NCBI GenBank assembly: GCA_000004985.1 | Contig: GG738862.1 | DNA: 64,000 bases | Source: Naegleria gruberi | Lineage: Eukaryota | Strand: one strand, 5' to 3' | Shown here: positions 1-28,746 of the stretch, piece after piece | How positions within the stretch are numbered: the first letter of the stretch is position 1 | Layout of the letters: each line of letters opens with the position of its first letter | Position numbers and translations under genes: made by a program | The notes under the pieces: generated by a model | Seen by the model: only the letters and a program-made list of their open reading frames with translations | Databases searched by the model: none | Told to the model about the DNA's origin: nothing

Positions 1-744
1 AGTTTATTGGTTAGTAATAAGAGTAGAGCAGTAGAGTATTCGAATCATTTTGTTTCGAATTTGAATAACGCAACTAGAGAATATTTAGAGAAGGCACTAT
101 ATGAAAGTGATAAGAATGATGCTATTGAGACCCTTTATATGGATTCGACAGCTATAATTGGAACCATACTATGTGGATTGGCTCTGTTAATTATACTTCC
201 GACCGGTTTTATTGCTACTTTTGGAAGAAATAACAAATTATTGGAAAAATTACAAAAAGTCAATGCAAAGGAGGTCTTGAAGACGGTGTCTGATACATAT
301 TTGAATACTTCCTTTAAAGAATATTGTAAAAATCATCAACAATTGAAATATTTTCTATTTTTAGAAAAATCATTACTTTATTCAGAATATTGTGAAGAAA
401 TATTTAATTTAAATTCAATTGAAAATTACTTAAATGGTACCAATACCAATTCTATAGAAACTAGAATTGATGAATTTGAATCTAAAAAGTGTGAAATTAT
501 CTTTGAAACCATGATTGAGTTTCTCAGCTCAAAAGGTGAATATTTTCTTGGTGAGAAACAAATTGGCGGGAAGAAATTAATTCAAAAAGTTAATAAGGAA
601 TTCAAATCTAATCCAATGAATTTACCAGAAAATTTATTAGATGAAATTGAATCGAATATTTCAATTTGTTTAATTTCAACACTCAAGTCATTTCAATCCA
701 CGCAAAAACAAAAGAGAACTCTTTACAATTTTTCAAAACAATAG
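1..744 (+). CDS. Two-TM membrane protein with C-terminal RGS-like domain, family paralogue. It is 5'-partial: the reading frame is open from window position 1.
   Basis: The ORF is open from nt 1 (ORF-track start at 7 is a TTG). The protein contains TM2 (IIGTILCGLALLIILPTGF) and the conserved C-terminal domain LEKLQKVNAKEVL...FKEYCKNHQQLKYFLFLEKSLLYSEYCEEIFNL...FLGEKQIGGKK...NPMNL shared with the genes at 4146, 5548, 7187 and 9046. Blocks of about 95 nt are nearly identical to the 4146 and 5548 genes. Confidence 0.5.
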   Translation, partial: SLLVSNKSRAVEYSNHFVSNLNNATREYLEKALYESDKNDAIETLYMDSTAIIGTILCGLALLIILPTGFIATFGRNNKLLEKLQKVNAKEVLKTVSDTYLNTSFKEYCKNHQQLKYFLFLEKSLLYSEYCEEIFNLNSIENYLNGTNTNSIETRIDEFESKKCEIIFETMIEFLSSKGEYFLGEKQIGGKKLIQKVNKEFKSNPMNLPENLLDEIESNISICLISTLKSFQSTQKQKRTLYNFSKQ

Positions 745-770
745 TCAACTTGAAGAGTTTGAGGAATTCT

Positions 771-895
771 TACTCTATATATATTTTGAGTAGTGAGATC
801 ATAAAACTCTAAATGAATTCCTTGCTATTATTACGAAGATATCATTGATTGATGGAAGAGGAAACCACTTGAATCATCGTATCAGTAAACACCAA
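771..895. repeat. About 125-bp dispersed duplicate. Its minus strand encodes ...VFTDTMIQVVSSSINQ* plus 3' flank, a copy of the C-terminal end of the RCC1-like gene (see 2459..2570).
   Basis: Direct alignment of 771-893 against 2459-2568 gives about 80-85% identity. Both copies contain tcattgattgatgga and gaatcatcgtatcagtaaa(c/t)acacca. Confidence 0.6.
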
Positions 896-990
896 GCCAT
901 ACTGAACCATACTGATGTGGCCCGATGATTCTTTGAGGCGCTCATCGTGATATGGTTAAAAGTTTGCTGATGTGTTACTGTACAATCAGC

Positions 991-1990
991 TTATTTTCTT
1001 AGTGATGTTAATTGTTTCATTTCACTTAAATATTTGGCTCCTTTATCACTAATTTCATTGTTATAAATATAAAGTAATGTCAGTTGTTTCATTTCACTTA
1101 TGTATTTGGCCCCTTCATCACTAATTTCATTGTAACCAATATTAAGTGATGTTAGTTGTTTCATTTCACTTATATATTTAGCTCCTTTATCACCAATTTG
1201 ATTGTCATAAATATAAAGCGATGTTAATTGTTTCATTTCACTGATGTGTTTGGCTCCTTCATCACTAGTTTCATTGTTAGAAACATTAAGTGATGTTAAT
1301 TGTTTCATTTCACTTAAATATTTGGCTCCTTTATCACTAATTTCATTGTTATAAATACAAAGTGATGTCAATTGTTTCATTTCACTGATGAATTTAGCTC
1401 CTTCAACAGTAATTTCATTGTAACCAATATTAAGTGATGTTAGTTGTTTCATTTCATTTATATATTTGGCCCCTTCATCACTAATTCGATTGTTAGAAAT
1501 ATAAAGTGATGTCAATTGTTTCATTTCACTTATGTATTTGGCTCCTTCATCACTAATTCATTGCTACCAATATTAAGTGATGTTAATTGTTTCATTTCAC
1601 TTATATATTTGGCTCCCTCTACACCAATTCGATTGTCATAAACATTAAGTGATGTTAATTGTTTCATTTCACTGATGAATTTAGCTCCTTCATCACGAAT
1701 TTCATTGTTAGAAACATTAAGTGATGTTAATTGTTTCATTTCACTGAAATATTTGGCTCCTTCATCACCAATTTCGATTGCTACCAATATTAAGTAATAT
1801 TAATTGTTTCATTTCACTTATATATTTGGCTCCTTTATCACTAATTTGATTGTAATATATATTAAGTGATGTTAGTTGTTTCATTTCACTTATATATTTG
1901 GCTCCTTCATAACCAATTAGATTGTGAGAAATATCAAGTGATGTCAATTGTTTCATTTCACTAATGAATTTGACTCTTTCTCTCGAGCCA
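991..1990 (-). repeat. 72-bp tandem repeat array of about 14 units. Each unit encodes a 24-aa RI-type leucine-rich repeat, MKQLTSLNIGYNEISDEGAKYISE.
   Basis: Visible 72-nt periodicity: gt(c/t)a(g/a)ttgtttcatttcac...ttggc(t/c)cc...tcatcactaatttcattg...attaagtgat, repeated head to tail. Confidence 0.85.
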
Positions 1991-2403
1991 AGCAAATATC
2001 CAGAAAATTCAACATTAACAATACTATTCCTAAATTGACTTTTCTTGAATAATTTAATTCTTTTCTTTGTAAATTTGTTTTTAAATTGAATAACAAGTTT
2101 TGAACGTTCCTTGATCACATTAAAGAATTGTTTTGAAATTAAAGTGCAATTATTTAAAATAAACCACGAATCATCAATCATTGAAATTATTTCAAAACAA
2201 ATATCATCTGAAAATATTTCTTGTCGCTGGAGTTTCACAAATTTTTTCTTCTGTTTTGCTTTCACCATATTATTATGGTCAATTGTGAATATTTCCTCCG
2301 AATTATTCGTATGATGATTTTCAAAATCTTGACTGTTTCGTTGACCCATTTTTTTAAATTTGAATGATTTAGAGAAATTGTCTGATATTTTAACAATCGG
2401 CAT
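991..2403 (-). CDS. F-box-like/LRR (ribonuclease-inhibitor-type) protein. The reading frame is interrupted by two compensating 1-nt homopolymer indels near 1556 and 1776, so this is a possible pseudogene or sequencing error.
   Basis: The N-terminal segment QEIFSDDICFEIISMIDDSWFILNNCTLISKQFFNVI is F-box-like. It is followed by 24-aa LRR units. The three ORFs 1765..2403, 1530..1787 and 991..1524 all read the same repeat consensus. The outer two share a frame (offset 879 = 3x293) and the middle one is shifted. Confidence 0.5.
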
Positions 2404-2458
2404 TGGAAAGCACTACTGCATAACAAAGTGATCTAATTATTGAAGGAAGTTAAAGACA

Positions 2459-2570
2459 CTCTATATTTGAGTGGTGGGATCATAAACTATATAGTACTAT
2501 TATTACAAAGATATCATTGATTGATGGATGAGGAAATTACTTGAATCATCGTATCAGTAAATACACCATC
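2459..2570. repeat. Second copy of the about 125-bp element. Here it forms the genuine 3' end (DGVFTDTMIQVISSSINQ* plus 3'UTR) of the minus-strand gene 2514..3824.
   Basis: Aligns to 771..895 (see that feature). Confidence 0.6.
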
Positions 2571-3824
2571 CCTCAATCTATTTTTCAGTTTTTCAGTCAT
2601 AGTCTTCATATTCAAAGAATGAGTAAAATAATCCTCTCTCCAATAAATTATATCAAGAAATTCAGAAGTGATGGATAATTTGGAATCTCCTTTAATATTG
2701 CTAGTTGTGTAGATGGGTGTCAGAATGAAAAACGAGTTACTAACCAAGTCATTCATTCGATAAATTGTTGAATTGTTGATAACTATGAAAAATTCTCTAC
2801 CCGAAGAATAAATTCTGCATGATTTGATAGTTTCAGGTTTCTTTCTTATTAGTTTCGTAATTTCAATCTTGTGATTTTTTGGGGAATAAATATGGAACTT
2901 GTCTAATTGAAATTCAATGTAAAAAACACATATTATTATGAGGAAACTTACTTGTTAATAGAGCTACTCCATTATATGTAGAAGCAATATCAATAACAAA
3001 TTCATTAGTATTTGAATCTGGTAGTGGAAACTCTTTCAACGAATCCCCAAATTCACTTCCACAACAAAAAACCTTTCCATCATTTGTAAGGGCCACAGTT
3101 TTATGATCTCCATTTACAACCTTTACAAAAAATGGTTTAATACTCTGCTGTTCATCTAAATTACATTCCATAATTCTTTTTTGAGAAAGGTTTGAGATTT
3201 GACTTGTTGATTGACCTGTTTCTCCAAATTTATTACATCCACTAGCCAATAGTCTTCCTTTGGATGTTAAATAAACAATAGTTGAAGATGCACATGAAAT
3301 AAATCTAACAAACTCATCCATTTCCAAACAATTTTCAAAATCCAAAATTTCATGCCAATCTCTAATGTCAAATGTTGGCGTAATTGATTTTTCAAATGAT
3401 AATTGATCAAATGATTCAGTTTCTCCACGATAAAGTTTAACATTCTCTCCAAAATAACCACTACCAGTATATATATATTGTATCCAAACACTTTCGTCTT
3501 ACATGTCACTCTATTCTGTACCAATAATAAGATATTACAATAGGAGGCACTAATTTCAATAATTGTTTCATTCCTCCGATCAGTAATAAATGGTAATTCT
3601 AATTTCCACCAAATTCCCTTCCTATACATGAATAATTCATCATCTTTGGTTACCACATAACAATAAAATAATCGGAAGAGAATAAACTTGATTGGTGCAA
3701 AACGACCAATAAAATCAGAATTTTCTATTTCACTCTTATTTCCACTCAAATTTATATCGGGATAGAATGAGACGAATCGATCGGATTTTTGTACAGTTTC
3801 AATTATTGTTGATGAATCAAACAA
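2514..3824 (-). CDS. RCC1-like repeat protein in three ORF pieces (3267..3824, 2914..3345, 2514..2756). There is a frame change near 3480-3500, caused by an intron or a frameshift.
   Basis: Motifs LLASGCNKFGETGQ and ALTNDGKVFCCGSEFGDSL resemble RCC1 blades (GxNxxGQLG). The pieces lie in different frames with no clean in-phase GT..AG pair found. Confidence 0.35.
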
Positions 3825-4145
3825 GTAAAGGAAATTGACAGGTTGCTTGTGGAGCCATTTTTTTTTCTTCTTAGATTTTAATAATTTTAGAAATCAAAAA
3901 AGTAATGATAATATTTAATTGATGAAGATGTGTGGTTAGCAAGTTGCAGGCCAAAAAATTAAGTGAATCAAAATAGAATTAAGGTGACCACTTACGACTT
4001 TCTAAATGCAATTCGAGTAATTTTTACTTCTTTCGTTCTCGTTAATGTCATGATCTTACTATTTTACTAATTTACCTTCAAGAGCTTTCTTTTTTAGGAA
4101 GATATCATCGAGCTAATCAACTTGCGCAGCGCCACATGAAAAAAA

Positions 4146-5432
4146 ATGACTTTAAATCCATCGACGTCTACATTTGAATTATCAGTGAAGATTGAACCAC
4201 ACAATGCACCACTTCATCAATTCAACAATAACAATAACAACAATAAAGAAACAACAAATAATTACTTTTCGGAAAGAAAAAAACGAAAATACAAGATTAA
4301 TACGAAATGTGGAAGTATTGAATTTGACATTGAAAGAATATTAACTTTTCTAGTCATGTTTGTGGTTGTTGCTTCTCTTCTTGGTTTGGCTATAATGAGT
4401 GGATTTGGTTTCATTCGAAGTTATAAAGAATTAAGTGTTTACTATTATGGTGGTAAATCAACAGGTTATTCTATTGAATTATCAACATATATGAGAATAG
4501 TATTATCTTCTGATATAATAATTAATGACAGATGGCTTTTAAAAATCAATTCAACTTTTGAGAATTGGTTGTATGCTTCTGAATGGGCAATTTTTCATTC
4601 TTTCTATGTTGATTATTATGAAATTCAATTACCACAAATAGTTAAAGACATTCAGAAAGAATATGAACACTTGTACAATTCACTACTATTACAAAATATT
4701 AACAAGACAAGTCAATTTCAATATTTTCAAAATGAATTTGTGAAAAGTGTTGAAAGTTTCAATGTGGATTATCTTTTGAGTGCTTATAGATATAGTCTAG
4801 CTATTAATGAAAGAGAATCAAGTTATATTGTCATTACTTCTATAATTGGAACTATTGTTTGTGCCTTGATATTACTAATTATACTTCCAACTGGTTTTAT
4901 TGCTACTTTTGGAAGAAATAACAAATTATTGGAAAAATTACAAAAAGTCAATGCAAAGGAGGTTTTGAAAACTATAAATGATCCTTATTTGAACGATCCA
5001 TTTCGGAAATTCTGCAAAGAAAATCAAAAACTTAATTACTTTCTATTTTTGGAAAAATCATTACTATATTCAGAATATTGTGAAGAAATATTTAATTTAA
5101 ATTCAATTGAAAATTACTTGAATGATAGTAGTACCAATTCTATAGAAACTAGAATTGATGAATTTGAATCTAAAAAATGTGAAATTATCTTTGAAATCAA
5201 AACTGAATTTCTAAATTCGAAAGGTGAATATTTTCTTGGTGAAAAACAAATTGGCGGGAAGAAAGAAATTCAAAAAGTGAAATTGGAATTCAAATCCAAT
5301 CCAATGAATTTATCTGATAATTTATTAGATGAAATTGAATCGAATATTTCAATTTGTTTAATTTCAACACTCAAATCATTTCAATCAAATCTTAAAAATA
5401 AGAAATTCATCTCAACCAAGTCGTTACAATAA
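4146..5432 (+). CDS. Two-TM receptor-like protein with cytoplasmic RGS-like domain (family paralogue)
   Basis: Basic juxtamembrane motif RKKRKYKINTKCGSIEFDIERILTF. TM1 is VMFVVVASLLGLAIMSGFGFI. An approximately 200-aa loop carries NxS/T sites. TM2 is IIGTIVCALILLIILPTGFIATF. The C-terminal domain matches the RGS-box pattern (F-K-x3-K-x9-F; ...CEE...; VNL(D/E)xS; (S/D)xxF(L)G). Confidence 0.55.
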   Translation: MTLNPSTSTFELSVKIEPHNAPLHQFNNNNNNNKETTNNYFSERKKRKYKINTKCGSIEFDIERILTFLVMFVVVASLLGLAIMSGFGFIRSYKELSVYYYGGKSTGYSIELSTYMRIVLSSDIIINDRWLLKINSTFENWLYASEWAIFHSFYVDYYEIQLPQIVKDIQKEYEHLYNSLLLQNINKTSQFQYFQNEFVKSVESFNVDYLLSAYRYSLAINERESSYIVITSIIGTIVCALILLIILPTGFIATFGRNNKLLEKLQKVNAKEVLKTINDPYLNDPFRKFCKENQKLNYFLFLEKSLLYSEYCEEIFNLNSIENYLNDSSTNSIETRIDEFESKKCEIIFEIKTEFLNSKGEYFLGEKQIGGKKEIQKVKLEFKSNPMNLSDNLLDEIESNISICLISTLKSFQSNLKNKKFISTKSLQ

Positions 5433-5547
5433 ACAACATTTGTTTCAATTATTTAGTTGTAAGTATTGTCGACAGCGCTATCCATTTCCAGAATATTTTA
5501 AATTTCCGTTTTAGGAAGATATTCATCCGAAACCTGTCATAAAAAAA

Positions 5548-6831
5548 ATGTCCACACCAACAACAAGCTCTTCAACATTGGAGTTGTTAGAAGAGGATTC
5601 TTCTCCCTCTCGGAAACAACAAGATCAATTCAATAATAATAACAAAAACAACATTATTTTGCCATCATCAACATATAAACTTTCGAATAGAAAGAAACGA
5701 AAGTTTATCATTAATACTAAATGTGGCAGTATTGAAATGAGCATTGAACGAATATTAACATTCCTAATCATGTTCATTGCCATATTTTCACTTTTCATTC
5801 TTTCAATTATTACAATCTATGCATTCTTCTTGAAAAATTACAATGAACATTCAATTTACAAAACATCACATCAAACTATTCAACATTCGAATAGATTATC
5901 TACTTATTTTCATATCATTTTATCAACTAATATTACAATAGATGATAGATGGTTATTAAAAATTAATTCTACTTTTATGGAATTTAAAGAAAAAGCATTA
6001 TTTGGAGCACTTTATTATTTTGAAATTTCCAATAATGGAAATGAATATATTAGACCAATGGAAATTGTTAAAATTGAACAAGATTATAATTATTTATATG
6101 AATTATTAACTAAAAATAAGAAAGATTTGGAATTTTATAAAAATCAATTTATTTATGGAATTGAAAATTATGTACAAAATTATTTGGAAATTGCTTTGAA
6201 GAAAAGTGATAAAAATGATGAAATAGAAACTATTTTTATGTATTCTACTGCTATAATTGGAACTATAATATGTGGATTGACTTTATTAATTATTATTCCA
6301 ACTAGTTGTATTGCCTTAATTGGAAATAATAACAAAATTATGAAAAAATTACAAAAAGTGAATGCAAAAGAAGTTTTAAATTTTATTTCAGATTCTTATT
6401 TGAATATTTCCTTTAAAGAATATTGTAAAAATCATCAACAATTAAAATACTTTCTATTTTTGGAAAAATCATTACTATATTCAGAATATTGTGAAGAAAT
6501 ATTTAATTTAAATTCAATAGATAATTACATCACTAATTCCAATACTAACCTGAGTGAAATACAAATAGATAAATTTGAATCTAAAAAATGTGAAGTTGTC
6601 TTTGAAATTATTACAGAATTTCTAAATTCGAAAGGTGAATATTTTCTTGGTGAGAAACAAATTGGCGGGAAGAAATTAATTGAAAAAGTTAATAAGGAAT
6701 TCAAATACAATCCAATGAATTTATCTGAAAATTTATTTAATATTATTGAATCAAATATTTCAATTCATTTATTTCCAACACTTAAATTATTTAAATCTAA
6801 TAGAAAGACTATTCCTAATCTAACAAATTGA
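5548..6831 (+). CDS. Two-TM receptor-like protein with cytoplasmic RGS-like domain (family paralogue)
   Basis: Same architecture (RKKRKFIINTKCGSIEMSIERILTFLIMF TM1, TM2 IIGTIICGLTLLIIIP, C-terminal FKEYCKNHQQLKYFLFLEKSLLYSEYCEEIFNL). Nucleotides 6440-6520 are nearly identical to 5040-5120 and 340-420. Confidence 0.55.
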   Translation: MSTPTTSSSTLELLEEDSSPSRKQQDQFNNNNKNNIILPSSTYKLSNRKKRKFIINTKCGSIEMSIERILTFLIMFIAIFSLFILSIITIYAFFLKNYNEHSIYKTSHQTIQHSNRLSTYFHIILSTNITIDDRWLLKINSTFMEFKEKALFGALYYFEISNNGNEYIRPMEIVKIEQDYNYLYELLTKNKKDLEFYKNQFIYGIENYVQNYLEIALKKSDKNDEIETIFMYSTAIIGTIICGLTLLIIIPTSCIALIGNNNKIMKKLQKVNAKEVLNFISDSYLNISFKEYCKNHQQLKYFLFLEKSLLYSEYCEEIFNLNSIDNYITNSNTNLSEIQIDKFESKKCEVVFEIITEFLNSKGEYFLGEKQIGGKKLIEKVNKEFKYNPMNLSENLFNIIESNISIHLFPTLKLFKSNRKTIPNLTN

Positions 6832-7186
6832 AAATATTAGTATTCTAATTAAGAAGACTCTTCTGAAGTTGATCACTAATTTAGTTTGATAGATCTTTAA
6901 TTTAACAATCAAATAGTATTTAGTCAACTCAATTACTCTTTAAGAATTTAAAATTCAACTATGAAAATTGAAAGTACATAATCATGATTACAATCCTCGT
7001 AGTTCGTAGTGTAAAACATTTTCAAGACACTTGTCTCTTTTATTCTTCAATTGTAACAACCATTAGCTATATAGAGATAGTTTCCATACCAAGGAAAAAT
7101 GACATGTTGACATTTGGTATCTTTTATAGACATTTGACCACCACATAAGCCAACAATCACGATTGCGATATCTTTCACTAAAAAAA

Positions 7187-8716
7187 ATGTCTCTTCAACA
7201 TGCTCTTCAACAACAAAGCAATTCAATTACCTTTGTTGAAATGGAGAATCTTCTCATCACCTTGAATATCGATAGTACAAATCAACTAGAACAACAAATA
7301 ACATCAACAATATTATCTTCCTTACCTTCTGCACATTTAAATAATTCAACTTCTATAACAACAACAACAGGTAGTTCACAACAGTTGTCAACTTTTAAAT
7401 ATTTTGATCAGAGTACAAGTAGTAGTACTTTGATAAAAATTATTGAGGAAGGAAATAATGATGGTGTTAATATTAATAAGAATATATCAATTCAACGAAA
7501 GAAGGAATTTATTATAAAAACTAAATGTGGTCAATTGGAATTGACATTTGACAGAATATTGGCATTTATTATCATGTTATTGGCAATTATAACATTATTA
7601 ATATTAGTAATATTATCTACTGGTACTATTTTCTTGCAAACTAATACAGAAAACAAAACTTTTAATAACTTTACAAAAGTTACAAAAAATTTAATAAGAT
7701 TGAATGCATATTATACTATTTTAATGGAAAGTAAATTAGATGAATTATTGATTGAGGAAATTAATGAAACAATGATTGATGTTAAAGTGGATTACAACAA
7801 GTTATTAATTGATATTCCTTATTATGGAAATACTGCTCAATATAGTAGGTCCAGAGTTGTTACAATTTTAAATAGAAATTTTAAATCTTTGGAGAGTAAT
7901 CATAATTATATTTATAATGAGATTATAGTAAATAATTATACAGATACTAAATTTTTCTATTCGAATTATCATCCTAGTTTAGTCAATTTCACACAAAGTT
8001 TAGACCTAGCTCTGATACTTGCTGATAAGGCTGCAAGTAATGAAGATGAATATATGAATATAAATGCAATCATTGATTTGTCTCTAGTTGGATTTGTATT
8101 GATAATCATAATTCCATCAATTGGTCTAATTTTAATCAAGTCAGCTGTCAATGACAACAAATTTATGGAAAAATTACAAAAAGCAGATGCAAGAATAGTG
8201 ATTGAAACAATTGCAGATCCTAGATATCAATCATATTTTAAAGAATTATGTAAAGAACATAATCAATTATCAAAATATCTATTTATGGAAAGAGTTCAAT
8301 TATTTAATGAAATATGTCAAAGAGTTTTCACATTACAAGATGAAATTGAAGAAGGAGTTAATCTAGAAATGAGTAAGAAAATGTTAATTGAAATTGATGA
8401 TTTAGAAGCAAAGAAATTTGAATTATCATTTGAATTAATTACAGAATATCTTGATTTAGGTAGTGATACCTTTTTAGGATTTAGATTAGTAGGTCGTAAA
8501 AGATCCATTGAGAAAATCAAAAAGATATTCGACACACAATCAATGAATTTGCCTGAAAATCTCTTCAAGAATATTCAATCAAATGTTTCATTGAATTTAC
8601 TTCCAATTTACAAATTATTTAAATCCAATCAACAACGAAAGAGAAATGAAAGAAAAATTAAAATTATTGCAAAACAACAAGACAAACATGAAATTATGAA
8701 AAATAAACAACAGTAA
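7187..8716 (+). CDS. Two-TM receptor-like protein with cytoplasmic RGS-like domain (divergent paralogue)
   Basis: KKEFIIKTKCGQLELTFDRILAFIIML TM1. An N-glycosylation-rich loop (NKTFNNFT, NETMIDV, NYTDTKFFYSNYHPSLVNFTQ). TM2 is LVGFVLIIIIPSIGLILI. C-terminal FKELCKEHNQLSKYLFMERVQLFNEICQRVF...GVNLEMS...GSDTFLGF. The start is placed at the ATG after an A7 run. The ORF-track start at 7163 is a TTG. Confidence 0.5.
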   Translation: MSLQHALQQQSNSITFVEMENLLITLNIDSTNQLEQQITSTILSSLPSAHLNNSTSITTTTGSSQQLSTFKYFDQSTSSSTLIKIIEEGNNDGVNINKNISIQRKKEFIIKTKCGQLELTFDRILAFIIMLLAIITLLILVILSTGTIFLQTNTENKTFNNFTKVTKNLIRLNAYYTILMESKLDELLIEEINETMIDVKVDYNKLLIDIPYYGNTAQYSRSRVVTILNRNFKSLESNHNYIYNEIIVNNYTDTKFFYSNYHPSLVNFTQSLDLALILADKAASNEDEYMNINAIIDLSLVGFVLIIIIPSIGLILIKSAVNDNKFMEKLQKADARIVIETIADPRYQSYFKELCKEHNQLSKYLFMERVQLFNEICQRVFTLQDEIEEGVNLEMSKKMLIEIDDLEAKKFELSFELITEYLDLGSDTFLGFRLVGRKRSIEKIKKIFDTQSMNLPENLFKNIQSNVSLNLLPIYKLFKSNQQRKRNERKIKIIAKQQDKHEIMKNKQQ

Positions 8717-9045
8717 CTTTTCCATTATTCGACTTTTCACATTATTTCCTTTTTGAGCTCATGGTCAACTGGTTCTTTTATTAACAATTATTCCATTAAG
8801 AGAACAAATTATCAGCAATCACACAATAAGAATGTTACTTTACACAACTTACAATATCCACTAGAATCGGAATTAGAATCTTTTATTTATGCGATTCTTA
8901 TTTGAGCCAGCAAATCATTTTGGAATCTTTCACTTTACGAACTCTATTTTACCTTTTTAGATGTTTTTGGAATGTTAAACTACTATTTTCAATTTGCAAT
9001 ATTGACATCCATGAATCTTTCACACAGTCAATTAAACACAAAAAA

Positions 9046-10527
9046 ATGTCTCTTGACGAAACTGTTCGAAACAATGAAATTAATCTTGTTGAAATGGAGA
9101 ATGTTTTATATTCAATGAAGATTGATACTGAACAACAATTTTATGAATCAACTTCAACTCAACAAGATGCCTTCAATTCTTCATCTAATAATAATAACAA
9201 TATTGATAATACACAGTTGACTAGTAATAATAAACCTTTACAACAAACTAGTAATACAATAGTTAAAATTGAAGAAGGTCAACAAGAATATAACACTAGT
9301 GTAACAATACCACCTAAAATTCCAAAACAAGATCAACAATATATTATAAATACCAAATATGGACAATTACAATTATCATGTGATAGAATAATATCAGTAT
9401 TAATCATGTTATTAGCAATTATTACATTATTTATGATGGCATTTCTATCTGCATGTACTTTAATATTAGAAACTAATACTGAAAATAAAACATTTAATCA
9501 CACAACTCAATTATCAAAGAATTTAATAAGATTAAATACTTATTACAAAATTATTATGGAAAGTGAAATTGTAGAGTTGTTAGTTGAGGAAATTAATGAA
9601 ACAATGATTGATGTTACAAGTGATTATCATCTATTATTAAGAGATGTACCTTATACTGGTAACACTGATAAATATAGTAGGGCAAGTGTAATTACTAGAA
9701 TTGGAGATTATTTTAACATATTGGAAAGTAATCATTTTCATCTTTATAATCAAGTTATTGAAAATAATTATACAGATACTAAATTTTTCTATTCGAATTA
9801 TCATCCAAGCCTAGTCAATTTCACACAAAGTTTAGACCTAGCTCTGATACTTGCTGATAAAGCTGCAAGTAATGAAGACGAATATATGAATTTAAATGCA
9901 ATTATTGATCTTGTATTATCTGTATTTGTATTAATTATTATAATTCCATCAACTGCTATATTACTTATCAAGTCAGCTGTCAATGACAACAAGTTTTTAG
10001 AAAAATTAAAAAAAGCAGATGCAAGAGTAGTGATTGAAACAATTGCAGACATAAGATTACAGAATGAATTTAAAGAATTATGTAAAGAACATAATCAATT
10101 ATCAAAATATCTATTTATGGAAAGAGTTCAATCATTCAATGAAATATGTCAAAGAGTTTTCGCATTACAAGATGAAATTGAAGAAGGAGTTAATCTAGAA
10201 ATGAGTAAGAAAATGTTAATTGAAATCGATCAATTGGAATCTAAAAAATTTGAATTATCATTTGAATTAATTACAGAATATCTTGATTTAGGTAGTGATA
10301 CCTTTTTAGGATATCCTTTAATAGGTGGAAAGAAAGCAGCGGAGAAAATCAAAAAGATATTCGATACTCAATCTGTTCACTTACCTGAAAACTTGTTTAA
10401 AAATGTTCAATCAAATGTTTCTTTGAATTTACTTCCAATTTACAAATTATGTAAATCCAATCAACAACGAAAGAGAAATCAACGAATGAAATTAATGAAG
10501 AAACAACAATTAGCAACGACACAATAA
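9046..10527 (+). CDS. Two-TM receptor-like protein with cytoplasmic RGS-like domain (paralogue of the 7187 gene)
   Basis: About 70% identical to the 7187 gene product over the TM2 and C-terminal domain (FKELCKEHNQLSKYLFMERVQSFNEICQRVFALQDEIEEGVNLEMSKKMLIEID). The start is chosen at aaaaaaATGtctctt by analogy with 7187. The upstream part of ORF 8902.. lacks family similarity. Confidence 0.5.
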   Translation: MSLDETVRNNEINLVEMENVLYSMKIDTEQQFYESTSTQQDAFNSSSNNNNNIDNTQLTSNNKPLQQTSNTIVKIEEGQQEYNTSVTIPPKIPKQDQQYIINTKYGQLQLSCDRIISVLIMLLAIITLFMMAFLSACTLILETNTENKTFNHTTQLSKNLIRLNTYYKIIMESEIVELLVEEINETMIDVTSDYHLLLRDVPYTGNTDKYSRASVITRIGDYFNILESNHFHLYNQVIENNYTDTKFFYSNYHPSLVNFTQSLDLALILADKAASNEDEYMNLNAIIDLVLSVFVLIIIIPSTAILLIKSAVNDNKFLEKLKKADARVVIETIADIRLQNEFKELCKEHNQLSKYLFMERVQSFNEICQRVFALQDEIEEGVNLEMSKKMLIEIDQLESKKFELSFELITEYLDLGSDTFLGYPLIGGKKAAEKIKKIFDTQSVHLPENLFKNVQSNVSLNLLPIYKLCKSNQQRKRNQRMKLMKKQQLATTQ

Positions 10528-16734: not shown

Positions 16735-19698
16735 TTAGACATTTTCTTGATTAACTCCTCTTCCATTATTATCTGTGTTATTATCACCAGCAATTGGACC
16801 ATCATTGGATAATGTAGTACTATTATTAGTTGTATCATTACCAATTCCATATTGTCTTCTCAATGCATCCAAATCAAAAGGTAAAGTTAATTGAATTTGT
16901 AAATTTGGTCTCTTTGCATTTTCTCTTCTCAATTTTTCTAATTCTTCTTCATCAATAATCCACATTTCATCATCATCATAACGTTGACCAAAACATAATA
17001 AATTTGATTTGATAAAATCTAAAGCCTTCATAAAATTATTACCATATTTTGAATTATTAAAATTATTTAAAAATCTACGTTTAGATTCAACCTGTTCAAC
17101 ACGTGCAGTACCAGTTGTTGTATCAAATGGAAGTGGAATTTCCTTAGTTGCTCTATAATTTTCTATATTTGCAATATTTTCATGTTCAATACGGAAAATA
17201 TTCCAAATAAATCTTCTTAAAATTTCCAAAAATACAAACAAGTATAAAATCCATTCCAATGTTTCCTTTTCAATTTTAACAAATGATTTAACAAATAAAA
17301 ATGGTAACCAAACCCATCTTAGTATAATATTACTAAACATGGCCATATAATAATATTGAGGTGAAAATATTAATTTAGATCTTAATCCCCAATATTTAGT
17401 TTTCTTTTCAAATAAACCCATATCAACACGTAAATCCCAATATAATTTTAAACATGTTGAAATAATATTTATAATAATATATATAATACGTAATATTGTA
17501 AATGATCCAATTAATATATTATTAGAATTATCCAATGTTAATTTATCAATAAATGCAATAATAATGACTAAACATGATGAAAAATATTTTAATGCATTTA
17601 ATAAATGCATTTTTTGTCTAGTATCATAATATTTTCTTAAACATTGCATTAATCTAACATGATATGGAATGTAATTTAAAATTGGAATTCCTAAACTTTT
17701 AGTTGAAGAACAAAATAAAGAAATTGTTGAAAATTTTGAAGTTGCAGGATAAATACAACCAATAAATTGTAATTCAAATAAAACATCAGATAAAGAAGTT
17801 AATTGATCTGCAATAAAAAAGTCAGAAAATCTAACTACTGTAAAAGGAGATGCTAACATTCTTAAAATACATTTTAATAACCAATATCTAAATTCAAAAT
17901 TTAAAATTTTAAAAGGATTAATTAAATATAAAATAAAAATAATCCATAATATAATTGGATGCCAATATGCATATTGTCCTATTAATAGAATATTACTTAA
18001 ATAGGAAATTACATTCATCATGTAAATTAATTGACTTGTAAAAATTATATTTAAAATTAATAATGAAATTGATAAAAATTTCCAAGTTGATAAACACATT
18101 AATGGATTTAATCCTAATATGTAAATATAATTAATATTATATTTACTCCAAATTCTAATATTTATACTTATAAAAAATGTTAATAATGTTGGAAATAATA
18201 ATAATCTATATAAAGAAAAACTTTGATCATCATATTCTATATTTTCCTTATTTGTAAATTCATATGTATAAAAATAATAAAATAAATTTATAATTATTAA
18301 TATAAATAAACTTCCTAATAAAATACCACTTGTAAATATATCTTTTAAATTATTTACTTCTAAAATACCAATATCTCCTATTTTTAATTTACTTAATTGT
18401 TCACTTGCTAATTTTATATCATTTTCACAATAATATTCTGCATAATAATAAATTGTATCTTTAATATGTTTATCAATTAAATTAGAATTTTTAAAATATT
18501 GATATTTTATAAATTTTATATTTTCAAATATTTCTGTAAAATTAATATTTCCATATATAGTATCATAATAATTATTATATTATTATTATTTAGAATTATT
18601 ATTATTATTAGAATTATTATTAAAATTATTATTAATAATAATAGGAGTATTAATTGAATTATTTTTAGAATTATAATTAATTGCATCATTTAATTCATTA
18701 AAAGTAAATTTAATTTTTCTTTTTGTAATTTCATTTAATTTTGTTGTAATATGAATTAAAGCATTATAATTAACTAATCTATAATTAAATAATAAATTTA
18801 AATTATAATAATGTTCTTCAATTCCTTCTTTTAATTTTTGTTTTTGATTAAATGTTAAAATTTCTAATTTTGATGATTTACTATCTTTAGAAATTAATGA
18901 TCTTGCATATTTATTATCATTATACATTTCATTAATTTTATTAATTTGTTCTAATAATCTATTATGTTCATCATTAATAGAAATTTCATTTTCTAAATAA
19001 AAATTATTAATCTTATTAATTTCCTTATATAGTAAATATTTAAAATCTTCAATTAAATTATTATTTATATCATTATTATTATTATTATTTCTTCTATTTG
19101 TTAAATTAATAGATGAAGATATAATATTTTTAATATTAAAATCAGAATGTTTAAATTCATCTTTTAAATCATTTAATTTATCAAGTAAATATTTATAATC
19201 TAAATATTTAACTTGCCATTCTGTTACCATATTTGCATAAAATTGTTGTTGTAATGTTTTTTCATCATATGAAGATGATATTATTATAGATTCAGATGAT
19301 TCACTACTACTACTACTATCATCTGATTCTACACTTTCAATACTATTTCTATTTTCATTATCTTCATTAGATCTCAATAATATATTATTAGTATTATTAT
19401 TGCTGTTATTATTATTATTAATAGATTTAAAAGAGTGATGATGATGATGACGGTGATGATCACCATATTCTATTGGATCATCAATATATTTATGATGATG
19501 ATCTAATAATTCTAATTCATCTTCTTGATTTAATGGAATATCTTCTTCTATACGTTCATCATCATCATTAATTGTTGAGGAATGTATCATCATCATTGGT
19601 GGAGGAGGTGTTGAAAAACTTCCTACCCCACTACCAATGGGTGATGAAAATGATGACAAGTTTGGTGGAGTCTTGTTAATTATACTTGTTCTTCTCAT
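16735..19698 (-). CDS. SPX-EXS family protein (XPR1/SYG1/PHO1-like phosphate exporter homologue). It has a His-run N-terminal extension. There is at least one intron, with acceptor ttttacag at about 18535.
   Basis: EXS signatures are VVRFSDFFIADQLTS and RRFIWNIFRIEHENIANIENYRATKEIPLPFD. The SPX start-like segment is FYANMVTEWQVKYLDYKYLLDKL (compare PEWRKQYINYEEMK). The frame is open on the minus strand from 16735 to about 18534 without an ATG. The upstream exon 18586..19698 ends in a stop, so the exact splice is unresolved. Confidence 0.55.
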
Positions 19699-19772
19699 AT
19701 TGTAAATACACTTGTTGTTGTTGTTCTATGAGTAGTTTCAATAGGTATTAGATGATAATAATATGATGCTAT

Positions 19773-22133
19773 TTGGATATAGAAATGGATGAATTTATAG
19801 TAAATACAGTTACAGATACTATTGAAAATGTAATAGTATCATTTAAATGTAAAAGTTATTGGTTTATTTCATTTGATGGTGTTGCAACTAAATCTAAAAG
19901 ACTTTTACAAAGAGATAATAGAGCTAAAACTTCACGTAAATCAAATAAACAGTTATTTAATAATAATAATAATAATATAGATGATAATAATAATATAGAT
20001 GATAATATAGATGATAATAATATAGATGATGAACAAGTTGATAAAGAAGATCTCATTGAAGATAAAGAAGATTTCATTGAACAAGATGATAATAATATTA
20101 TTATTATTGAAAAAGAACAAGATGAATTAAATGATGATGAACAAGATGAAAATCCAAAAAAAAGAAAATTAAATGATGATATCAATGAAGAGAATGATAA
20201 TAATATTAATAATAATAATACTACTCCTATAACAAATATATCTAATAATAATACAAATACTAATAATAATAATATAAATAATAATAATAATATAAATATA
20301 GATAATGTAGAATGTAAAAGATCATTAAGTGTAGAAATATCACCTGGTACAAATTTAAGTAAATTAATGTATGAATCAATAACTAAATTAACATACCAAA
20401 TATGTAAAAAATTAAAAATAGATATATATGTATCATCTACTAATAGATCAGGTGAAGGTGAAACTAAAATAATTGAACATTTAAGACAATATTCTAAAAA
20501 TAATACATTACCTAAATCAGTATTAATTATATCACAAGATTCAGATATGATTTTAATACCATTAATTAATTCAGATATTAATTGTTCTTTTTATATTTTA
20601 ATACCAAATTCAATACAACATTTTAAATCTGGTAATTTTATTGATGTTACAAGTTTTAAATTATTTTTATATAATTTTATTTCTAAAAATAAATTTAAAA
20701 AAATAGATAATTCTAATATAAATAGTAATTATTCTATAAATAATTATAAAAATATTCATCAATTATGTTTAGATTTTGTTAGTATTACATTATTAGCAGG
20801 TGGATGTGATTATTTTAGATATTTTCAAAAAGGATTTATAAGAAATTGGAGAAATTATTTTAAATTAATTGAAAATTCATCTAATTTTAATATTTTTGAA
20901 TTAAATATTTTAAATAATTCAGAAATTGAATTTACAATTAATTGTAATAATTTTATATCTGTATTTGGAAGTAGAGTACCATATACACAAATGGAAATGA
21001 AAAGTGATCCAAATAATGCAATTTTATTTTTTAAACAATTATGTGCATGTATTTTACAATTTAAAGGAATAATTCCAATTATGGAATATTTTAATAATCA
21101 TTTAAAAATGATTGATGTTTTACATTTATTTTCTTTAAATAATAATTTTTATGAACAAGTTGAATTTACAAATAATAATAATATTACTAAATTTAGAAAA
21201 GTAATTACAAAAACATTTAAAGATAAAATTAAAATTTTAACAACAATTGAAGAATTAACAGATAAAACAAATTTAACTCCACTTGAAGGTTTAATTTCAA
21301 TGATTAATAATTTAAATTATCATGCATTACCAAATCAAAATTTAATTGAAATTTTTAAACATGAAGAATTATCTTTTATTTTAAATATAAATACAAAAAT
21401 GGAAAAAAAATATTGGACTTTAAATGATCCTTATTTAAAAATTAGAAATTTTATTAATGAATGGAAAATTAAATATTCAAATATTAATGATAATGAAATT
21501 AATAATATTAATACTGGTACTTTATATTTAAAATATAATGATTATAATAATATATTGACTTTTATGGAAGGTAATAGACCATTTATGGAATTTAATAATA
21601 TTGATTTAAATTTAAATTTAAATAATAATTATCATAAATATTTAAATATTTCAAATATAATTACTGCTCCTTCTATTGATCAAATTAATTTATTAAAATT
21701 ATTTGATGAAACTGATCCACATAAAAATTTAACTAAATTAGTTTATAAAAGACAAAGACGTCCTAATAATAATAATAGAAATAGAAATAATAGAAATAAT
21801 AATAATAGAAATAGAAATTATGATAGAAATGATAATTATGATAGAAATAGAAATGATAATAATAGAAGTAGAAATTATGATAGAAATTATGATAGAAATG
21901 ATAATAGAAATACTACTATTGAAGATAAGAATAATGATAAAAGTAGTTATGATAATAGAAGAGATGATAGAGATAATAATTATAGAAATTATGATAGAAA
22001 TTATGATAGAAATAGAAGTTATAATGATAATAGAAATGATAATAGAAATTATAATAATAATAATTATAAAAGAAGAGATAATAGAGGAAATACTTTTTAT
22101 AATGAAAGAAAAGATAATGATAGAAATAAATAA
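19773..22133 (+). CDS. XRN-family 5'-3' exoribonuclease homologue (divergent). It lacks the canonical extreme N-terminus and has an N/D-rich insert and a C-terminal RN(Y)D repeat tail.
   Basis: [27 protein letters not shown] compares with XRN1 [48 protein letters not shown] compares with [37 protein letters not shown]...[14 protein letters not shown] compares with PGEGEHKIMEFIR...LYGLDADLIMLGL. Confidence 0.55.
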   Translation: [786 protein letters not shown]

Positions 22134-22401: not shown

Positions 22402-23774
22402 TCAATTAAATAATTCATAAATAGGTCTAAATGATTTTTGTTGAATAACTTGTGGTATTTCTAATAAACCTCTCAATGCTTTTAAAATATCAATACCTAA
22501 TAAAACACCTAACATTCCAGCTAAATCTCCTAATAATTGTAACATTGTTTTACCTGCAATTTCACTAACTTGATGAATATTTAAAGTAGAATAAGCAAAT
22601 GAAACAACAACAATTGAATCTTCTTTAAAAGTTAATTGTACATTTGAAATACGTGAATCCCAATGTATTGAATGTAATGGATATTCTTCAGTTGATTTTA
22701 ATCTATTAGTTTCAATTTTAGTTAAAGTAAAGAAATTATCAACGTATGGTATTGCAAAATTAGTTTCAGCAAAAACTAGTGGAATTGAACCAATTTCATG
22801 AAATGATGCTTGTAATCCAAATCTTGAATCTCTATCAGATTTTACAGGTGGTAATGTAAAATACATTGAAATACTACCACCATATCCTGTTGTTTTAACT
22901 GCTAATGGTTTACTTGTATCATTATTAAATACATAACATTGAAATACTTGTCCATTTTGTTCAATTACTGTTTCACTTAATTTAAATGGACATTCATATA
23001 TTGTACCATCTGTATCATTCACCATTGTACATGTTTTTAATGTTAAATTACAATAATCACAATAATATTCTGCATTCCAATTACATATTGTTACTATTTA
23101 ATTATATTATTATATTTTAATTATATTATTATATTTTTAAATTATTATGTATTTATATTATTAATTATTTTAATATTTTAATATTAATTATTATATTTTA
23201 ATAATAAAAATAACATACCAGCAGGATAATTTAAAGGTACTTGTTCAATATAAGAAATAGAAGTGGATGGATTTGTTTGTGCATCTAAATAACCATTTAT
23301 AGAAGAATATAAATAAAATAAATAAACACCAATACATATTAACCATCCAATTGATGTTATAATTTCAGATATTCTTACACCTGTTCTTATTTGTAAACAA
23401 TCTGCATGATCATTTTGTGATTCTAAATCATCTCCATCTCCATCTTCATATTTATGTATATTTTTAACTCTAGGTGTTAATACTTTTGAAAGTGTATCTA
23501 ATGTTGTTGAGTGATGTTGTTGATGTTGTATTTCCTTATTAAATGATTGATTATTATTTGTATTTTTCATTAAATTATTATTTTGTTGTTGTTGAGATTC
23601 AGGATAATCAATACAACAATTATTATCCATTTCAACTTGTATCGGAGGTTGTGGTTCAAAATCATCTAATGTTGGAAGCCTACTTGATGCTACATGTGAT
23701 GTTTGAGCCTTATATCCATCTTGATTTGTTGTTGTTGTAGATGTTACTGAGGTATTAAGATTATTATTCTTCAT
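22402..23774 (-). CDS. DEG/ENaC/ASIC-family cation channel homologue with two exons, 23219..23774 and 22402..23093. The 125-nt intron 23094..23218 starts GTATGT and ends AATAG.
   Basis: Exon 1 has a long N-rich N-terminus, TM1 ITSIGWLICIGVYLFYLY, then ...NYPA|. The splice creates YPAVTICNWN (compare the conserved post-TM1 FPAVT(I/L)C). A Cys-rich ectodomain follows. C-terminal TM2 LLGDLAGMLGVLLGIDILKALRGLLE aligns with ASIC [26 protein letters not shown]. Confidence 0.6.
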
Positions 23775-25353: not shown

Positions 25354-27918
25354 ATGTCATTACACGATGATCAATTATCCTCCTCTATTACAACTCCCCA
25401 ACAAGATGATGATATTAATAATAAAGATATTGTTGATGAATTGAATAAATATGATATTAATAATAATAATATATTTGGTTATAATAAACAAATAAATAAA
25501 AAACAAATTATATATGGATGTGGTGATGGATTTTGGAAGAAACAAACCGATATAATATCAATTACTAAATTAACAAATTTTGATAAAATAGATTATTTAC
25601 AAAATTATATATTAAATGATAAAATAATTAAATTTAAATGTAAAGATCAATTATGTATATTTCTTACTAGTAATGGAAATGTATATAAAATGGGACAATG
25701 TACATTTATAAATAATTGTACAAATATTCCAACATTAATTAATAATTTTAAAAATGATAAAATTATTGATTTTTCNNNNNNNNNNNNNNNNNNNNNNNNN
25801 NNNNNNNNNNNNNNNNNNNNNNNNNNNNNNNNNNNNNNNNNNNNNNNNNNNNNNNNNNNNNNNNNNNNNNNNNNNNNNNNNNNNNNNNNNNNNNNNNNNN
25901 NNNNNNNNNNNNNNNNNNNNNNNNNNNNNNNNNNNNNNNNNNNNNNNNNNNNNNNNNNNNNNNNNNNNNNNNNNNNNNNNNNNNNNNNNNNNNNNNNNNN
26001 NNNNNNNNNNNNNNNNNNNNNNNNNNCTTTTATAGAATATAAAAAAAATGGTAAATATCAAGTTGACTATTTTTATACTTTAAATTTTACAAATATTACT
26101 AAAATAGTAAAAGAATGTAATAAAAATAAAAATATATTTATTAATAATAATAAAATACAAGATATTAAAGATATTCAATGTAATGGTATTAATACTATAA
26201 TTATTTATAATGATAATACAAATATATTATCTCCTTTATTTAATGATTATTATAATCCAATTAAAAATGAAATTATTTTAAATAAAGTTTATAATAATTT
26301 TATTTTTGAAAATGTATATCAAAAATTAATTTTAAATGAATATCAAATTTTATATTTAAATAATAATAATGAATGTAAATTTATTGATTATAATGGTAAT
26401 TTATTTAAAATGGATAATATTATAAATATGGAAAGTGGTACATTTCATAGTTTTTTACAAACTATTGATAATAAATTTTATTCATTTGGATCTAATGAAT
26501 TTGGTGAATTAGGATATAATAAGAAATTTAATGAATTAAAACAAGTTGAATTACCATTTACTATTAAGGAAGGTGATAATGTTCAAATTTGTTGTGGTAA
26601 AAATTTTACTATTTTAATACATGAAACAGATAATGATGAAATATTTAAAATTAATAATTTAATTGTAACTGATAATTTTAATTTTAATTATGAAATTAAT
26701 TCAAATTTTTATTTAAATTTAAATTTATTAAAAAATATTTCCAATGATTTTTATAATTTAATTACAAATAATAATATAATTGAATATTTAAATGAAAATG
26801 ATCAAAAAGCATTATATTATTTAATTAAAAATGCATTAATTAATTTAAATAATTTAACTAATTTAGATGAATTATTTATTAATTATGATAAATTTATAAA
26901 ATTAATTTCCTTTAATGAAATTGAATTAAATTTAGTAACATGTCTATTTATATTAAATGATATAAATGATATTAATAATGAAATTAAATTATTATTATTT
27001 AATGATCTATCAAATAGAATTAATATTGATAATATTATGAATATTTTACAAAAAGTTAATAATTATCTTTCTTTAAATATTTTAAAACAATCTAAAAATA
27101 GTATTTTATTATTATTAGCAAATAAATGTTTAGCATTTATTAAAGAAAATGAAAAATTATTAAAATCAGAAAAATTATTTGAAATTATTAAAGATAAATT
27201 ATTAAATATTAAAAAATCATTTAAACAAATTATTTATAAAATTGATAATATTACTACTATAAATGGAATTGATAATAATATTAAAAATATAAATGAATCA
27301 TTAAAATTATTATATAATAATAATGAAAATAATGATATTAAAATTATAATTGATGAAAATTCAAATGAAATATTATATTTACATAAAAGTATATTATCTA
27401 TTCATAGTCCAGTTTTAAATATTTTATTTAAAAATTTAAATATTAATGAAATTAATTTATATGAATTTATTGAAATGATGATATCAGATGAATGGATAAT
27501 TAATTTATTTAAATATTCAAATAAAATTAATGAAATATTAAAAATAATATTTAAATTATGTTATGGATATAAATTAAATAATTTAAATTTAAATAATTTA
27601 ATTGGTATTTTAATTATTTCACAACAATTAGATATTACATGGTTAATTAAATATACATGTAATTTAATTATTGAAAAATTTAATGAAATTAATGATACTG
27701 AATTTATTTTATTACTAAATTTAGTATCAATTTCACAAAATAATAATAATTGTAAAGAATTTGTTGAATATTTTAAAATATTTTGTTCAAATAATTTATC
27801 ATTTGATTATTTACAAAAAATACAATCAGTTTGTAAAGATAATCAATCATGTGATAATTTTATTAAAATTATTATTGATTATTATTTAAGAGTACATACT
27901 ATAAATAGAAAATATTAA
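25354..27918 (+). CDS. RCC1-repeat plus BTB/POZ-domain protein (RCBTB-like), extremely AT-rich. The CDS is interrupted by an assembly gap.
   Basis: YSFGSNEFGELGYNKK and GCGDGFW are RCC1-blade-like. ILYLHKSILSIHSPVLNILFKN is the BTB core. The N run inside the ORF is read as X. Confidence 0.4.
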   Translation: MSLHDDQLSSSITTPQQDDDINNKDIVDELNKYDINNNNIFGYNKQINKKQIIYGCGDGFWKKQTDIISITKLTNFDKIDYLQNYILNDKIIKFKCKDQLCIFLTSNGNVYKMGQCTFINNCTNIPTLINNFKNDKIIDFXXXXXXXXXXXXXXXXXXXXXXXXXXXXXXXXXXXXXXXXXXXXXXXXXXXXXXXXXXXXXXXXXXXXXXXXXXXXXXXXXXXXXFIEYKKNGKYQVDYFYTLNFTNITKIVKECNKNKNIFINNNKIQDIKDIQCNGINTIIIYNDNTNILSPLFNDYYNPIKNEIILNKVYNNFIFENVYQKLILNEYQILYLNNNNECKFIDYNGNLFKMDNIINMESGTFHSFLQTIDNKFYSFGSNEFGELGYNKKFNELKQVELPFTIKEGDNVQICCGKNFTILIHETDNDEIFKINNLIVTDNFNFNYEINSNFYLNLNLLKNISNDFYNLITNNNIIEYLNENDQKALYYLIKNALINLNNLTNLDELFINYDKFIKLISFNEIELNLVTCLFILNDINDINNEIKLLLFNDLSNRINIDNIMNILQKVNNYLSLNILKQSKNSILLLLANKCLAFIKENEKLLKSEKLFEIIKDKLLNIKKSFKQIIYKIDNITTINGIDNNIKNINESLKLLYNNNENNDIKIIIDENSNEILYLHKSILSIHSPVLNILFKNLNINEINLYEFIEMMISDEWIINLFKYSNKINEILKIIFKLCYGYKLNNLNLNNLIGILIISQQLDITWLIKYTCNLIIEKFNEINDTEFILLLNLVSISQNNNNCKEFVEYFKIFCSNNLSFDYLQKIQSVCKDNQSCDNFIKIIIDYYLRVHTINRKY
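25777..26026. other. Assembly gap (run of about 250 N) inside the RCC1/BTB gene
   Basis: Contiguous n characters. The frame continuity across the gap is an artefact of the placeholder length. Confidence 0.95.
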
Positions 27919-28746
27919 ATTTGATTACCAATCAGATTTATTAGAATTATTTAGTTATTTATTTTTTATTAGAAATTTATATATTGTGTAATGAAATAAA
28001 ATTATGTTGTGTATTTAAAATTCATAAATTATTTTATTACATCTCGGCAGCCATGAAGAATTGAAATTGTATTATATTGAAGATTCATCAATAATATGGA
28101 ATGATGATGATCCATAGTAAATCATATGGATGACATTCAGTAGTGAATCTTGTGACTTGTCATTATATTATCCAATAAATTTAGATATAAATAATCCCTG
28201 AAATGAACTAATTACAATATCGCCAATAATAGATCAATCCCTTCCAAAAAGAATACATTCAATAGGTGATTGTTATCCATTGTATTATAAGTAAACACTT
28301 TCAATCAATGTATTCTTCACCTCAATGAACCACATATCACCTCAGAGACTAGTAAGTTATCCAATTGATCTGGTTATTGTAATAATAATAGTTGTATTAA
28401 TGTGTATATATTGACATTTGTGGATGTAGGTAATTGAGGTAATAGTTTCGCCACAACCTTACTCAAGACCTAATAAAACAACAATCAATTGTAATATTTT
28501 CAATGACAAATTCATCATTCCATATCAATTATGAACAATTCTGCATCTTTTTACAATAGGTGGTCTTTATTAAAACCAAAATAGGACCTAACAAGATTTC
28601 CCAATTGGTATCGTCAGTGCTCAAAATGGATTCCAGCACAAATATTCGCTATTTTCTTCAACTACAAAGGGACATTTTTTATGATTCAATTTAAAAAAAA
28701 ATACAACAATAATAACTGCAAAGATTTCATTTAATAATAACAAAAA

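Follow-up and report, generated by a model that had tools for sequence, protein, structure and literature searches.

A stretch of 64,000 nucleotides from Naegleria gruberi (assembly GCA_000004985.1, contig GG738862.1), indicated below as the window, opens with five uninterrupted open reading frames (ORFs), arranged head-to-tail on the + strand within positions 1..10527 and publicly labelled as "predicted protein" only. Their C-terminal domain had been taken for an RGS box in an initial annotation of the sequence. The question raised by this locus is whether these are indeed membrane-bound RGS proteins and, if so, whether they may still act on G-alpha subunits as GTPase-activating proteins (GAPs). 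In the reading preferred here, to which we assign a probability of roughly 0.72, the five copies would be tandem paralogues within a family of two-pass membrane proteins of Naegleria and Willaertia, belonging to a subclade of GAP-dead pseudo-RGS proteins, which is retained with a new surface.

RGS homology and G-alpha contact positions of the C-terminal domain

The nature of the domain was evaluated through its relatives. An exhaustive hmmsearch, where a full-length profile of the paralogues was run against 1.84 billion representative sequences, retrieved 68 family members at the chosen cut-off (E <= 1e-3); E is 1e-10 or lower for 51 of these, and most matches are full-length; an earlier word-indexed protein search had returned N. 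gruberi paralogues only. When analyzed individually, 47 of the 68 members match the Pfam RGS family (PF00615), with a best E of 7.8e-12, and no other Pfam family recurs. In all ten relatives checked, the RGS match runs from just after the second transmembrane segment (TM2) to the C-terminus; six score above the curated cut-off of 23.9 bits, and several of the relatives above threshold cover nearly the full model (positions 4-116 of 117).

The window copies are connected to these relatives, and these to known RGS domains, by profile comparisons. A hidden Markov model built from the 59 non-array C-terminal domains matches the window copies over the whole domain, with E values from 1e-28 to 1e-35, and also aligns colinearly with RGS4, whose box sequence was checked against PDB 1AGR. 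By hhalign, the array is matched to the rest of the family with a probability of 99.9% (E 4e-31), and the rest of the family to RGS4 with a probability of 85% (E 6e-6), over 93 colinear columns including RGS4 residues 76-171, with an insert specific to the family, some 45 residues long, after alpha3. The closest non-array relative, P0007, matches PF00615 with 17.9 bits (E 0.0043), under the curated cut-off. As direct searches of the window copies are negative (see below), the RGS identity of the array rests on transitive homology; by this route the original assignment is borne out, and the C-terminal domain, jointly with the architecture described in the next section, may be regarded with high confidence as a genuine RGS homologue, although a very strongly diverged one. 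One of the residue matches which had suggested it, 'VNL(E/D)xS', turns out to be a coincidence: present in copies 4-5 only, as 'GVNLEMS', it sits in a variable insert, not aligned with the V-N128-L loop of RGS domains, and was rejected as a candidate for that loop. The true equivalent of the loop is a '(Y/T)FLG' segment.

Five residues of RGS4, which contact the switch regions of G-alpha, were mapped onto the family: E87 and N88, from the SEEN motif, N128, D163 and R167. All five ('ENNDR') are present in 31 of the 59 non-array members, and 'DNNDR' in four more. None is found in the five window copies and in P0006, a sixth paralogue located elsewhere on the same 502-kb scaffold (KYQSS, NYQSS, KYQPL, SKGPL and RYQSS). 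P0007 also has none of the five, and SKGQL is included among the patterns of the array clade plus P0007. In the array subclade, the alpha5-alpha6 loop is occupied by a remodelled, conserved segment, '(Y/T)FLG-x4-G(G/R)K(K/R)', which replaces the Asn128 loop and contains no Asn. The missing Asn of the SEEN motif, reported in the initial annotation, is therefore confirmed, being one of five contacts absent from all copies. Two options had been left open there, a ligand-regulated GAP and a GAP-dead, G-alpha binding receptor: 'GAP-dead' fits, while 'ligand-regulated GAP' does not, because all five contact positions are replaced in every copy; continued G-alpha binding finds no support, as the canonical binding surface is gone. 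Judging from these positions, the most likely view of the array copies is that they are pseudo-RGS proteins, dead as GAPs.

When clustered at 50% identity, the family comprises 68 or more groups; its named representatives are from N. gruberi, N. lovaniensis and Willaertia magna, the others being environmental contigs; some relatives (D2W391, D2V992, A0AA88GKR8) are automatically annotated as "RGS domain-containing protein". A rough, midpoint-rooted neighbour-joining tree gathers the ENNDR members into a single large cluster and places the array copies, P0006, P0007, which is encoded on a different scaffold, and two environmental sequences in a separate, divergent subclade. The array can no longer be viewed as an isolated local invention: it is one divergent subclade of a Naegleria/Willaertia family. 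Canonical members (D2W391_NAEGR and D2V992_NAEGR from N. gruberi, A0AA88GKR8 from N. lovaniensis, KAL9646225 from W. magna) share with it the same architecture and a full-length homology (E from 1e-20 to 1e-33). They differ in that most of them pass the Pfam RGS search, about half retain the five contacts, and the motif preceding the first transmembrane segment (TM1) reads TCCG, whereas the array features no contacts, the remodelled loop and TKCG.

Membrane topology and ectodomain

In each copy, a cytoplasmic N-terminal tail leads to TM1, and an extracellular loop, about 145-160 amino acids (aa) long, separates this from TM2, after which comes a C-terminal domain of some 160 aa. Exactly two TM segments are detected by a Kyte-Doolittle scan in every full copy, as in 54 of the 68 family members, in agreement with the two-TM architecture with an extracellular loop originally proposed; the loop is shorter than the 200 aa then estimated, the family median being 155 aa. 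The charge distribution at the TM flanks follows the positive-inside rule: throughout the family, TM1 and TM2 carry on average 2.2 and 3.5 K+R on their cytoplasmic flanks, versus 0.5 and 1.2 on those facing the loop, which fits a two-pass hairpin with both termini inside. The description of the loop as rich in N-glycosylation sites was overstated, since only two sequons are found in the loops of copies 2-3 and five in those of copies 4-5; family-wide, a moderate enrichment is seen (per 100 aa, the loop has 2.2 sequons and the cytoplasmic parts 1.3).

Directly before TM1, about 8-10 residues upstream, nearly the whole family carries the signature h-x-h-x-T-C-C-G-x-h-E-L. The array features a weakened form of it, I[NK]TKCG in copies 2-4 and INTKYG in copy 5: the basic juxtamembrane motif initially described is accordingly genuine in the former, but degenerate in the latter. 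Around the motif, the full-length model of copy 2 shows a short beta-hairpin. The cysteines of T-C-C-G could be an S-acylation site, or the motif could be a signalling element. Taken together, the array displays the set of features typical of this vahlkampfiid two-TM RGS family (motif, TM1, helical loop of about 150 aa, TM2, RGS-type domain).

In the same model, whose mean predicted local distance difference test score (pLDDT) is 65.9 overall and 70-89 in the loop, TM1 extends into a long helix, followed by two more helices and by a fourth one, which enters TM2. The ectodomain, of about 150 aa, is thus modelled as a four-helix bundle, with a membrane topology like that of bacterial chemoreceptor and histidine-kinase sensors, such as Tar/Tsr and TorS, NarX and QseE, respectively. 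This likeness is restricted to fold and topology, because four-helix bundles are ubiquitous: there is no sequence or Pfam link, and bundles from vinculin, talin and designed proteins score as well against the ectodomain. Hosts and outputs also differ, the bacterial sensors being coupled to HAMP plus a kinase or methyl-accepting domain, the family described here being eukaryotic, with an RGS output. A bacterial origin of the ectodomain was considered and rejected, in view of the lack of any sequence link. In most close pairs, identity is 25-47% in the ectodomain versus 72-87% in the cytoplasmic domain; such fast divergence of the ectodomain is as expected for what may be a recognition module.

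Two groups of known proteins are useful for comparison. The 7TM-RGS proteins (AtRGS1 from Arabidopsis, Nf 7TM RGS1-4 from N. fowleri, and those from Trichomonas), named after their seven TM helices, share with the family a receptor-shaped membrane part at the N-terminus and a cytoplasmic RGS domain at the C-terminus. Their membrane part is a seven-helix bundle, while here two TM helices flank the modelled four-helix-bundle ectodomain; seven TM helices upstream of the RGS box are not found in the array, where each copy has two. 7TM-RGS domains also use the G-alpha contacts, all of which are lacking in the array copies, and those from N. fowleri depend on the canonical interface, as a switch-1 G-to-S mutation abolishes GAP activity. 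The second group includes Axin, GRK2, SNX13/14/25 and the rgRGS domains of RhoGEFs, where the RGS fold has lost the canonical transition-state contacts and is used for binding or as a scaffold, as is proposed for the array domain; SNX13 and SNX25 rank high among the structural matches. These non-GAP domains stand in a different domain context, with no sequence tie beyond the RGS superfamily, and their loss of contacts is independent and lineage-specific.

From these elements a tentative mechanism may be outlined. The cytoplasmic tail, ending in T-C-C-G-x-h-E-L, would lead into TM1, the bundle, whose first and last helices would be continuous with TM1 and TM2, and finally the cytoplasmic RGS-fold domain. 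Canonical members would be GAPs of the receptor type, acting on the G-alpha subunits of Naegleria as 7TM-RGS proteins do. The array subclade would neither bind the G-alpha transition state nor speed up GTP hydrolysis; its domain would be retained as a pseudo-RGS module, where the conserved 'FLG-x4-G(G/R)K(K/R)' loop would provide the new surface. The array proteins might then use the remodelled basic loop to bind a different partner, or else associate with canonical members by way of their bundle ectodomains. The parts of this scheme concerning ligand sensing and modulation by heterodimers are to be taken as speculative.

Alternative readings

Several results weigh against the reading of the array as a retained pseudo-RGS subclade. 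The loss of GAP function is deduced from residue identity, and some RGS-homology domains bind G-alpha via other surfaces. None of the five window copies matches PF00615, even at E <= 10; in the same Pfam scan, only noise below threshold is found (TMEM9, STE3, Suv3_N and others). Nothing is retrieved among PDB sequences, either by phmmer with copy 2 or by hmmsearch with a profile of the array C-terminal domains, and an array-only profile is matched to RGS4 by hhalign with a probability of 0.2%. The whole-family profile finds RGS10 in the PDB only at E 0.88, along with spurious TM matches to G-protein-coupled receptor chains. A structure model of the domain could be obtained by AlphaFold (pLDDT 80.6, predicted template modelling score 0.73), but a Foldseek search of the PDB with it gives no match below E 0.6, and the 50 best matches include no RGS domain; the family-specific insert and the long linker helices probably lie behind these poor fold-search results. 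Both structure models are based on a six-sequence alignment, and the overall confidence of the full-length one is low. For the ectodomain, the ubiquity of four-helix bundles has already been mentioned, and Pfam sensor families (4HB_MCP, TarH and similar) match none of the 68 members at E <= 0.01. Finally, in an orthologue of copy 3 from a metagenome, a 2-bp indel is present at codon 19, in a low-complexity stretch, and reflects either faulty assembly or a genuine truncation at the N-terminus; as a result, the called product begins with the Met which immediately precedes TM1, and lacks TKCG.

Among the alternatives, the one which survives best goes further than the preferred reading, and sees in the family a distinct class of receptors, a two-TM "receptor-GAP" parallel to 7TM-RGS proteins, where a dimeric ectodomain, similar to the chemoreceptor bundles, would directly control the RGS domain; the array proteins would be pseudo-GAPs, regulating the active receptors by heterodimerisation or acting with a new partner via the FLG-GGKK loop. 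In this complete form, we regard such a class as unlikely. On the opposite side, the copies might have no sensor role and might instead serve membrane structure or trafficking, for instance in an internal organelle; the helical region would then be a spacer in the lumen, and the RGS-homology domain a scaffold close to the membrane, as in SNX13/14/25. This is improbable: both the divergence of the ectodomain, faster than that of the cytoplasmic domain, and the tandem expansion are typical of sensor or recognition families, and PX, PXA or nexin-C domains are not found in a Pfam scan of the 68 members.

An even lower probability is attributed to the copies being active, ligand-regulated GAP receptors despite their divergence. 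Homology to members with fully canonical RGS residues and a domain under purifying selection would be compatible with it, and membrane-bound RGS proteins of Naegleria are known to work as GAPs (PMC9283941). Against this stand the replacement of the five contact residues in every copy, the conserved FLG-x4-GGKK insert, which takes the place of the Asn128 loop, and the failure of the Pfam RGS search.

If activity has been lost, the copies might simply be decaying duplicates, whose RGS residues disappeared under relaxed constraint. Decay would agree with the absence of every functional residue, with the degenerate form, TKYG, of the motif in copy 5 and with the indel found in the copy 3 orthologue of another strain. 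The five ORFs, however, are intact. Among close paralogues, the ratio of nonsynonymous to synonymous substitution rates (dN/dS) of the RGS-like domain is 0.23-0.41; copy 3 and its orthologue from a 98.6% identical strain differ by 11 synonymous and 3 nonsynonymous codons; and 41 positions are invariant across six members of the clade, including the new FLG/GxK loop. These values indicate that the RGS-like domain is under purifying selection. The replaced-residue state is moreover old and maintained, because it is common to P0007, on a different scaffold. The pseudogene reading was accordingly rejected as very improbable.

That the domain is not derived from RGS at all, the Pfam matches of the relatives being compositional or coiled-coil artefacts, is hardly credible, since 47 members match PF00615 independently, several above the curated threshold and nearly end to end, E-N...N...D..R falls at aligned positions in 31 members, as not expected from chance similarity, and no other family recurs.

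Genomic context and meaning of the family

The position of the copies and of their parts is reported in Table 1. All five ORFs are present on the + strand, as originally described, and are confirmed as paralogues by tblastn (E from 1e-37 to 0; 28-70% identity), which finds no further copy within the window. They form two subgroups, copies 1-3 and copies 4-5; the products of the latter two are identical to NCBI entries named "predicted protein [Naegleria gruberi]". The array is not an assembly artefact, because the copy 2/3 junction is reproduced by an independent metagenome contig (L001, ENA ERZ929261, 1901 bp), which stems from a close N. gruberi-like strain and is colinear with window positions 5136-7067 at 98.6% identity.

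Table 1. Features of the array and of the genes interposed in it; positions refer to the window
Feature	Product	Length (aa)	Position	Strand	Motif	TM1	Ectodomain	TM2	RGS-like domain	FLG loop	Remarks
Copy 1	P0005	432	1..744	+				166-222	232-699	541-576 (remodelled, 'YFLGEKQIGGKK')	3' part only, truncated at window edge; length of full product
Copy 2	P0003	428	4146..5432	+	INTKCG, 4296-4313	4338-4394	4395-4826 (four-helix bundle, modelled)	4827-4883	4920-5387	5229-5264	
Copy 3		427	5548..6831	+	INTKCG, 5710-5727	5761-5817	5818-6264	6265-6321	6331-6798		
Copy 4	P0001	509	7187..8716	+	IKTKCG, 7514-7531	7556-7612	7613-8080	8081-8137	8156-8626		
Copy 5	P0002	493	9046..10527	+	INTKYG (Cys lost), 9346-9363	9388-9444	9445-9912	9913-9969	9988-10458		
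Unrelated genes			991..3824	-							Split the array between copies 1 and 2
LRR_6-repeat gene			991-2403	-							
RCC1-like gene			2914-3824	-							

When the RGS-like domains of copies 1-3 are compared with the corresponding ectodomains, a different behavior of the two halves is observed: between copies 1 and 2, dS is 0.39 in the RGS-like 3' half versus 3.2 in the ectodomain. Similarly, the last 80 or so residues of P0006 are nearly identical to those of copy 2, with an overall identity of 42%. This pattern suggests that gene conversion or mosaic recombination may homogenise the cytoplasmic domain.

The window is AT-rich, with a GC content of 12-35%. In the 3.4-kb gap of the array, the LRR gene consists of three adjacent ORFs with near-perfect 24-aa 'SEMKQLTSL' LRR_6/LRR_8 repeats, and these ORFs probably belong to a single gene, interrupted by either an intron or a frameshift; its N-terminal ORF looks F-box-like by eye. 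The RCC1-like repeats of the second gene in the gap extend across two overlapping ORFs, and another RCC1-repeat ORF is found at 25354-27918. The GC content is 18-20% at 18001-22000 and drops to 12% at 26001-28000, mostly inside the latter ORF, which implies a long low-complexity coding stretch, probably Asn/Lys-rich. Directly 3' of the array, a cytochrome P450 gene (10745-12181, +; Pfam E 1.4e-73) looks like a CYP51 sterol 14-alpha-demethylase, an enzyme which is a drug target in Naegleria. At 16735-19698 (-), an EXS-domain ORF adjoins an SPX-domain ORF on the same strand, and the pair looks like a single phosphate-exporter gene of the XPR1/PHO1 type, interrupted by an intron. An ASC/ENaC-type channel fragment (22402-23025, -), a pyruvate phosphate dikinase (29296-31647, +), a DEAD_2 helicase of the XPD/Rad3 type (37679-40087, -) and a Memo-like protein (40363-41292, +) have no obvious link with the array.

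To our knowledge, the 7TM-RGS class is the only one studied so far among the membrane RGS proteins of Naegleria. Fusion of RGS to "at least one TM domain" has been reported for most lineages, and 229 RGS proteins were counted in N. gruberi (de Mendoza et al. 2014, PMC3971589). A two-TM RGS class is not described in the searchable full text, where only 7TM-RGS literature is found, and the family is apparently undescribed. Receptor-RGS fusion being already known as a theme, the two-TM, lineage-specific form extends that principle and does not establish a new one.

In N. fowleri, self-activating G-alpha subunits are under the regulation of membrane-bound RGS proteins (PMC9283941). As some Naegleria G-alpha subunits self-activate, the regulated step is GTP hydrolysis, driven by such membrane-bound proteins. 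The family described here adds to them a second large class, where the sensor module consists of two TM helices around a modelled four-helix bundle. The available counts of RGS proteins (229 in N. gruberi, "79 additional" in N. fowleri) are probably underestimates, because part of this class escapes standard domain searches. Several of its sublineages lack the G-alpha interface and yet appear to be under selection, and may provide a natural set of pseudo-GAPs. The family as a whole includes candidate receptors, which may convey extracellular cues into G-protein signalling in a genus to which the lethal pathogen N. fowleri belongs.

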